Source: Escherichia phage vB_EcoM_PTE-Eco15. From it: a DNA stretch of 64,000 nucleotides. The position numbers were made by a program, and so were the translations under genes. A model generated the notes under the pieces. It did no database searches, was not told the origin of the DNA, and saw nothing but the letters and a program-made list of their open reading frames with translations. Positions 53,604-54,601 of this stretch are shown one piece after another; within the stretch, counting starts at the first letter, position 1, and each line of letters begins with the position of its first letter. The stretch lies in sequence record PQ352352.2. One strand, given 5' to 3'.

Positions 53604-54601
53604 ATGTTTAAAAAGTATAGCAGTCTTGAAAATCATTACAACTCTAAATTTATTGAAAAACTTTATAGCTTGGGATTGACTGGTGGGGAGTGGGTAGCTC
53701 GTGAAAAGATTCACGGCACAAATTTCTCATTGATTATTGAGCGTGATAAAGTAACTTGCGCTAAACGTACTGGACCAATTCTTCCTGCTGAAGATTTCTT
53801 CGGTTATGAAATTATTTTAAAGAATTACGAAGATTCTATTAAAGCTGTCCAAGAAATTATGGAAACTTCAGCTGTTGTGACTTATCAAGTTTTTGGCGAA
53901 TTCGCTGGACCTGGCATTCAGAAGAATGTGGCGATAAAGATTTTTATGTATTTGACATTATTGTCACTACCGAAAGTGGTGATGTAACTTATGTTGATGA
54001 TTACATGATGGAATCGTTTTGTAATTCATTTGGGTTTAAAATCGCTCCACTTTTGGGTCGTGGTAAATTTGAAGATCTTATTAAACTTCCAAATGATTTG
54101 GATTCTGTTGTTCCGTCTTATAATTTTACCGTAGATAATGCAGGTTTAATTGACGCTAACAAATGTGTTTGGAAAGCTGAAGCCAAAGGCGAAGTATTTA
54201 CCGCTGAAGGATATGTATTGAAACCTTGTTATCCTTCTTGGCTGCCTAATCGCAATCGTGTAGCCATCAAATGCAAGAATTCTAAATTTAGTGAAAAGAA
54301 AAAGTCTGATAAGCCTATTAAAGCTAAAGTTGAACTGTCAGAAGCTGATAACAAATTGGTGGGGATTTTAGCTTGTTACGTTACACTAAACCGAGTAAAT
54401 AACGTTATTTCTAAAATTGGCGAAATTGGTCCAAAAGATTTTGGAAAGGTGATGGGACTAACTGTTCAAGATATTTTGGAAGAAACTTCTCGTGAAGGTA
54501 TTACTCTAACTCAAGCGGATAATCCTTCTTTGATTAAAAAGGAATTAGTTAAAATGGTACAAGATGTACTTCGTCCGGCTTGGATTGAATTGGTAAGTTA
54601 A
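53604..54601 (+). pseudogene. rnlB: RNA ligase 2 (rnlB) disrupted by a frameshift near 53931
   Basis: Track ORF 53604-53987 carries the ligase nucleotidyltransferase motif KIHGTN and then runs out of frame; ORF 54005-54601 in another frame carries the C-terminal domain; the second frame is open back to about 53921. Confidence 0.65.

Follow-up and report, generated by a model that had tools for sequence, protein, structure and literature searches.

In the sequenced genome of Escherichia phage vB_EcoM_PTE-Eco15 (record PQ352352.2), rnlB, the gene for RNA ligase 2 (Rnl2), is broken into two reading frames by a deletion of seven nucleotides, and as written the sequence reads as an rnlB null allele. 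We consider this probably to be a genuine and very recent null mutation in the sequenced phage stock, and infer that the deletion lies in the phage DNA itself and not merely in the consensus. A genuine mutation is favoured on three counts: sequencing errors do not usually take the form of this lesion, the window is otherwise clean, and experiments have found the gene to be dispensable. The window, by which we mean the whole 64,000-nucleotide stretch analysed, belongs to a Tequatrovirus: by megablast, its identity over 25 kb to phages such as Paracelsus, vB_Eco_F26 and EC128 is about 97-98%, and its rnlB region is 99.1% identical to vB_EcoM_Lutter and vB_Eco_BGP.

The gene spans 53604-54601 on the plus strand and appears as two ORFs, both in the ORF listing and on direct reading of the sequence. 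Its features are:

53593-53597, plus strand: a putative Shine-Dalgarno-like GAGGA, read from the sequence, 6 nt before the rnlB ATG and overlapping the stop codon of the 24.2 homologue
53604-53987, plus strand: ORF1, 127 aa, comprising Rnl2 residues 1-109, then 18 out-of-frame residues and TAA
53928-53930, no strand assigned: junction of the 7-nt deletion (TTGATTA or TGATTAT), from alignments to Lutter, BYEP02, T4, Paracelsus and eight others
53930-54601, plus strand: native-frame rest of rnlB, Gly112-Ser334 and stop, from tblastn, structure match and Pfam
54005-54601, plus strand: ORF2, 198 aa, Met137-Ser334 (MMESFCNSF...), beginning at the first native-frame ATG, GTG or TTG past the break
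54606-54627, no strand assigned: bidirectional intrinsic-terminator-like hairpin between rnlB and gene 24

ORF1 closes with ...GPGIQKNV followed by its 18 out-of-frame residues, and ORF2 starts 18 nt past the ORF1 stop, with no obvious Shine-Dalgarno sequence upstream on reading. The second frame is open from 53843, its match to T4 Rnl2 begins at Gly112 (53930), and residues 112-334 of Paracelsus RnlB match 53930-54598 by tblastn; this native-frame remainder runs to the usual C-terminus, ...RPAWIELVS and a stop. The two frames overlap at 53843-53985, about 140 nt, and are related by a -1 shift. A preliminary description of this DNA had reported a 127-aa ORF and a 198-aa ORF in another frame, at coordinates that we confirm exactly; it placed the start of the Rnl2-like second frame at about 53921, which is slightly early and in essence right.

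Genes are arranged here as in T4 (hoc - 24.3 - 24.2 - rnlB - terminator - gene 24), and the neighbours of rnlB, 24.2 and gene 24, are shared with T4, Lutter and Paracelsus, which puts the gene at its conserved position in the Tevenvirinae. A terminator is annotated at the position matching our hairpin in phages Lutter and fPS-90. As rnlB is the last gene of its unit and the terminator-like hairpin follows directly, no polar effect on downstream genes is expected.

At the junction the window lacks exactly 7 nt that all relatives examined possess: AATG-TTGATTA-TGGCGAT in the relatives corresponds to AATG-TGGCGAT in the window, or, in the wider alignment, ...CAGAAGAATG TTGATTA TGGCGATAAAG... to ...CAGAAGAATG TGGCGATAAAG... 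in the window. Because of a 1-nt T ambiguity, the junction falls at either 53928|53929 or 53929|53930. The codons GTT GAT TAT GGC (Val109 Asp110 Tyr111 Gly112) become GTG GCG ATA..., so that the third base of codon 109 (which still encodes Val) and the codons for Asp110 and Tyr111 are lost and the frame is shifted. All top hits agree in that a 1201-nt query covers 1208 nt of the subject. The preliminary description had suggested a 7-nt deletion relative to T4, and the alignments, T4 included, bear out that figure to the nucleotide.

We aligned 11 intact homologues (T4, Paracelsus, Lutter, BGP, slur03, Sf24, fPS-90, EL, phiD1, ESh17 and teqsoen). In all 11 the gene is 1005 nt long and the 7 nt are present, and the only rnlB columns at which the window differs from every one of them are the seven deleted ones. 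Re-insertion of the 7 nt yields a 1005-nt ORF of 334 aa that is 100% identical to the RnlB of Lutter, BGP and slur03; the repaired gene has three nucleotide differences from Lutter, all synonymous. No further decay of rnlB, whether as extra substitutions or as other lesions, is seen against the 11 homologues. The lack of any sign of relaxed constraint, together with the perfect identity of the repaired protein, means that the deletion is either very recent or artefactual. These were the two readings, a recent pseudogene or a sequencing or assembly error, between which the preliminary description had left the matter, and a single window-specific change in an otherwise perfect gene supports that framing.

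T4 Rnl2 (gp24.1, the product of rnlB; PDB 1S68, 2HVQ/2HVR/2HVS) is encoded at the same locus, 24.2 - rnlB - terminator - gene 24. Window residues 1-109 and 112-334 align to it without gaps and, unlike in T4 Rnl2, lie in different frames. Codon 112 of rnlB in the T4 record NC_000866 is TGT, encoding Cys112 (1306-1308 of L005, corresponding to window 53930-53932), while Gly112 is found in the crystallised T4 Rnl2 (2HVQ/1S68) and in the other 10 aligned phages, the window codon being GGC; the T4 Cys112 is either a polymorphism or a reference discrepancy.

The deletion was found in the window only. None of the 467 phage records matching a 90-nt junction query shares it (best 92.8%, 90/97), and the junction 32-mer is absent from IMG/VR, the GTDB representative genomes and the JGI metagenome contigs. 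No sibling isolate was present in the collections searched; the 127-aa product and the gp37 and Hoc of the window are unrecorded in a large assembly collection, and no match was found among E. coli complete genomes or plasmids. At the site itself there is no homopolymer or repeat, and no direct or inverted repeat flanks the junction. A templated or slippage origin was considered and rejected: there is no flanking repeat, no similar stretch close by could have acted as template, and, allowing up to one mismatch, the junction 15-mer has no second occurrence in the window.

An allele that is both unique and undecayed fits an artefact as well as it fits a genuine loss, and the main rival to our reading, a serious one though less likely in our judgement, is that rnlB is intact in the phage and that 7 nt were lost in sequencing, consensus calling, assembly or polishing. 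The absence of the deletion from the phage records, IMG/VR, GTDB genomes and JGI metagenomes, the repaired protein's complete identity to those of relatives and the strong purifying selection on the gene described below all suit such an error. Deposited T4-like genomes, moreover, hold what look like obvious errors in rnlB, namely the alleles of BYEP02 and of UTI-E4 (a +1 in a homopolymer). Against this, the loss of seven bases outside any repeat or homopolymer is an unusual type of error, no other compared conserved gene in the 64-kb window is frameshifted, scattered indel noise is lacking, and dispensable genes are where real lesions build up in stocks.

The quality of the window was assessed by translating the 85 annotated Paracelsus CDS and mapping them onto it. 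Among the Paracelsus genes with a full counterpart, RnlB alone breaks frame in place, and over the approximately 85 genes compared the rnlB deletion is the only isolated, uncompensated frameshifting indel in a conserved gene. In the full list of gaps relative to Paracelsus and Lutter, every other gap whose length is not a multiple of three either falls between genes or has a partner that compensates for it inside a divergent patch. The deletion site is likewise the only indel relative to Lutter (3.5 kb) and relative to the Logan contig SRR13760421_237 (L014; 3.9 kb).

[quoted passage not shown] In the window the break falls between motifs III and IIIa. ORF1, in frame 3, holds motifs I, Ia and III (Lys35 at 53706-53708, Arg55, and Glu99 at 53898-53900), while motifs IIIa, IV and V are in frame 2, where the native-frame remainder contains Phe119/Asp120 (53951-53956), Lys225 (54269-54271), Lys227 (54275-54277) and the C-terminal domain. 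All catalytic motif residues (Lys35, Arg55, Glu99, Phe119, Asp120, Lys225 and Lys227) are therefore still encoded, and never on one polypeptide.

Structure and profile matches divide at the same point. ORF1 residues 1-110 match the T4 Rnl2 structures 1S68/2HVQ (E=3e-68), and the second frame matches residues 111-335 of 2HVQ (E=3e-141). Pfam RNA_ligase (PF09414) is covered at profile positions 2-80 in ORF1 and 84-170 in the other frame, and T4_Rnl2_C (PF18043) is found in the native-frame remainder and not in ORF1, with Pfam thresholds passed. Across the two frames, Rnl2-family similarity thus extends over the adenylyltransferase and C-terminal domains; a continuous ORF of about 334 codons is absent, its place being taken by the 127-aa and 198-aa ORFs. 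ORF2 lacks motifs I, Ia, III and IIIa and keeps only PF18043 above threshold. Motif IIIa lies upstream of Met137 (54005) and so is part of no ORF with a start codon. With the motifs divided between two frames and never united on one polypeptide, the product cannot count as an enzyme of the family, and neither piece is predicted to form the adenylyltransferase pocket.

On our preferred reading, a recent null mutation, the 7-bp deletion at codons 109-112 would shift the reading frame, and initiation at the usual start would give a 127-aa product consisting of Rnl2 residues 1-109 and 18 unrelated residues. This product would keep the adenylylated Lys35, Arg55 and Glu99 and would have lost motifs IIIa, IV and V and the C-terminal domain. 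ORF2, if made at all through reinitiation, would supply motifs IV and V and the C-terminal domain without a nucleophile, and residues 112-136, including Phe119/Asp120, would fall outside any ORF with a start codon. From the mutational and structural literature on the family, both fragments are expected to be inactive, and ATP-dependent sealing of nicks (3'-OH/5'-PO4) in duplex RNA by this allele is predicted to be absent. The loss would be tolerated since the phage can grow on laboratory hosts without Rnl2, and further decay of the gene would be yet to follow.

In having two overlapping ORFs that differ by a -1 shift and share a U-run, the locus recalls programmed -1 ribosomal frameshifting (E. 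coli dnaX, phage tail-chaperone G/GT); here, however, it was a unique deletion that created the overlap, in a gene that is otherwise in frame. We attach almost no credence to the idea that a -1 slip within 53843-53985 restores a ligase of about 332 aa, or that the two fragments assemble into an active enzyme. It is true that the frames overlap by some 140 nt, that a U5 run at 53941-53945 would let tRNA-Phe re-pair in the -1 frame, and that the 18-nt distance from the ORF1 stop to the ORF2 start makes reinitiation conceivable. However, on reading the sequence the zero frame contains no X XXY YYZ heptamer; the RNA downstream folds unremarkably (z = -1.4, with 16 of 200 shuffles folding as well); Rfam returns nothing in the window; the flanks are identical to those of relatives whose gene is in frame, which means that no recoding element has arisen at this site; and the two-ORF arrangement is conserved in no relative. 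A two-piece ligase would, in addition, be without motif IIIa (Phe119/Asp120). Programmed ribosomal frameshifting was accordingly rejected, having neither slippery heptamer, stimulatory structure, Rfam hit nor conservation.

In T4, rnlB carries transposon insertions at 84/84 TA sites and is classed as "Non-essential", and the RnlB orthologue of Bas37 also tolerates insertions, according to the supplement of a transposon study (bioRxiv 10.1101/2025.11.20.689424); the rnlB comparison rows examined from that supplement show no significant change (q = 1). The T4 data fit the suggestion in the preliminary description that loss of Rnl2 would be tolerated. That description had also pointed to intact rnlA and pseT nearby: both are full-length and open in the window, though 25-28 kb away and hence not nearby.

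25344-26468, plus strand: rnlA (RNA ligase 1), intact; Paracelsus RnlA matches over 374/374 aa in one frame at 98.1% identity (tblastn)
28200-29105, plus strand: pseT (polynucleotide kinase/phosphatase), intact; Paracelsus PseT matches over 301/301 aa in one frame at 92% identity (tblastn)

The window pseT is 99.7% identical to that of phage BCH953P2. Evolutionary data on rnlB weigh against a genuine loss. At least 80% of RnlB is kept in 1362 of 1368 matching phage records, the gene is widely kept in the Straboviridae, and dN/dS among the intact homologues aligned here is 0.04-0.09, indicating strong purifying selection. With conservation of this strength, natural loss should seldom occur and would probably carry a cost outside the laboratory.

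Split rnlB alleles of other kinds turn up sporadically among deposited genomes, are no great rarity, and provide a precedent for a genuine loss:

Aeromonas phage Aeh1 (AY266303; L020 295-1321): rnlB annotated as rnlB-A / rnlB-B
vB_Eco_EH2 (OZ034684; L019 101-1107): +2 (AA)
UTI-E4 (P0003): +1 T in a T5 run
BYEP02 (OR757454; L002 1605-2686): 77-nt tandem duplication
Logan contig SRR13760421_237 (L014): +2 GG
Several Logan/ENA contigs: truncated N-terminal rnlB fragments

In the first five, as in the window, rnlB is frameshifted in its N-terminal half and appears as two ORFs; the lesions all differ from that of the window, and the 7-nt deletion is in none of them. In several deposited T4-like genomes (BYEP02, vB_Eco_EH2, UTI-E4 and Aeh1) the split rnlB is annotated as two "RNA ligase" CDS. 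In the stretch of BYEP02 shown, no capsid vertex gene is listed beside rnlB and the major capsid protein appears as two CDS; the length of the record (154.7 kb) and the defects around rnlB suggest a poor assembly.

The L014 contig, found through an exact look-up of the 198-aa ORF2, represents another T4-like phage, which shares 97.3% identity with the window and has SNPs of its own. Its +2 insertion (GG to GGGG, TATGGCG to TATGGGGCG, at 1683-1691) lies 0-2 nt from the window deletion, and its net frame shift and ORF2 are identical to those of the window. There are 23 mismatches between L014 and the window in the first 330 nt compared against six in the remaining ~670 nt, and this concentration upstream of the lesion points to a mosaic boundary near it. 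The ORF2 look-up is biased towards lesions upstream of Met137. Known truncated rnlB alleles lie at roughly aa 56, 65, 70, 80, 84, 85, 97, 110, 112 and 152. We rejected a mutational or cleavage hot spot as unsupported: the alleles are scattered over the N-terminal half, and chance alone would place around two pairs within 10 nt of each other given about 11 alleles in about 450 nt. When IMG/VR, the JGI metagenomes and the GTDB genomes were scanned with gapped patterns, normal spacing was all that appeared. The co-location of the L014 and window lesions is judged to be coincidence. The proposal that rnlB is unusually prone to disruption was also set aside: a two-piece rnlB occurs in 2 of 60 evenly spaced records and a two-piece pseT, the control, in none of 60, a difference that is not significant.

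These alleles bear on whether the loss, if real, was selected or engineered, by way of escape from a defence, escape from a nuclease (CRISPR or homing endonuclease) or deliberate knockout. The nearby L014 insertion, with its identical frame shift and ORF2, and the existence of at least about 10 independent truncated rnlB alleles speak for such an origin, which we nevertheless hold to be very improbable: the alleles are scattered, the close pair is not significant by a birthday-type estimate, disruption of rnlB is not significantly more frequent than that of pseT (2/60 against 0/60), chance alone would put PAM-like sequences close to the site in DNA this rich in AT, and the rnlB rows examined from the transposon screen give q = 1 (bioRxiv 10.1101/2025.11.20.689424). 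The narrower version, in which a defence of some hosts is triggered by Rnl2 or exploits it and is escaped by knockout, starts from the recurrence of independent frameshift alleles in a gene otherwise under strong purifying selection and seems to us similarly far-fetched, as does a weaker variant in which low-level -1 slippage on the U-run would keep up a trickle of full-length ligase; our literature search on Rnl2 in defence or counter-defence returned nothing beyond the statement that its role is unknown. If true, a selected loss of rnlB would provide a first biological lead to what Rnl2 does in infection.

Several other features of the window were recorded in passing. The gene nrdA (aerobic ribonucleotide reductase large subunit) is split into ORFs of 477 and 329 aa by an inserted 236-aa ORF, over 20455-23623:

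20455-21888: nrdA-a
21934-22644: HNH endonuclease ORF
22634-23623: nrdA-b

The insert has an HNH-like motif, recognised by eye, and an I-HmuI NUMOD-like domain (Pfam), and divides nrdA inside its barrel domain (Pfam profile positions 1-221 and 219-523). It is present in only 34 of 659 matching Tequatrovirus records, where it is annotated as a homing endonuclease between two nrdA pieces; it may be a free-standing endonuclease gene, an intron or an intein. The arrangement presumably resembles the "genes in pieces" ribonucleotide reductase of Aeromonas phage Aeh1. A 205-aa ORF at 50252-50869 on the minus strand, between inh and uvsW, has a GIY-YIG-like N-terminus (YHFVYETTNLINGKKYIGKHS) judging by eye and from its position; it occupies the position of T4 segE and is absent from Paracelsus. 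No RNA family was detected in the whole 64-kb window with Rfam at gathering thresholds. The td region (18047-19900) aligns to Paracelsus td, whose annotation joins two pieces across a homing-endonuclease ORF (window 18728-19462), and a group I intron interrupted by an ORF may escape the covariance model.

In place of the two Alt genes of Paracelsus (Alt and Alt2), the window has a single alt (ADP-ribosyltransferase, 37422-39470); it lacks the equivalent of about 1.7 kb of Paracelsus that takes in most of Alt2, the corresponding window site being 39816-39824. The distal tail-fibre cassette (2639-6121, minus strand) is strongly divergent: the similarity of a 967-aa gp37-like ORF to Paracelsus is confined to its first ~97 residues (59% identity), and nothing in Paracelsus matches the 183-aa ORF at the gp38 position. 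This is a typical exchange of a host-range module. The window also lacks a few small ORFs of Paracelsus.

In annotation, this locus is best given as one disrupted rnlB (a pseudogene or frameshift, with a 7-bp deletion after codon 109) and not as two "RNA ligase" proteins. The allele is new, the kind of event is known and so is the gene, and whether mutation or error the case is an ordinary one. Knockouts of T4 rnlB, both engineered and made by transposon, are already available. The part that Rnl2 plays in infection is described as unknown (PMC3884662), and if the deletion is genuine, vB_EcoM_PTE-Eco15 would be a natural Rnl2-null Tequatrovirus with intact Rnl1 and Pnk, and a ready-made strain for probing what Rnl2 does during infection.
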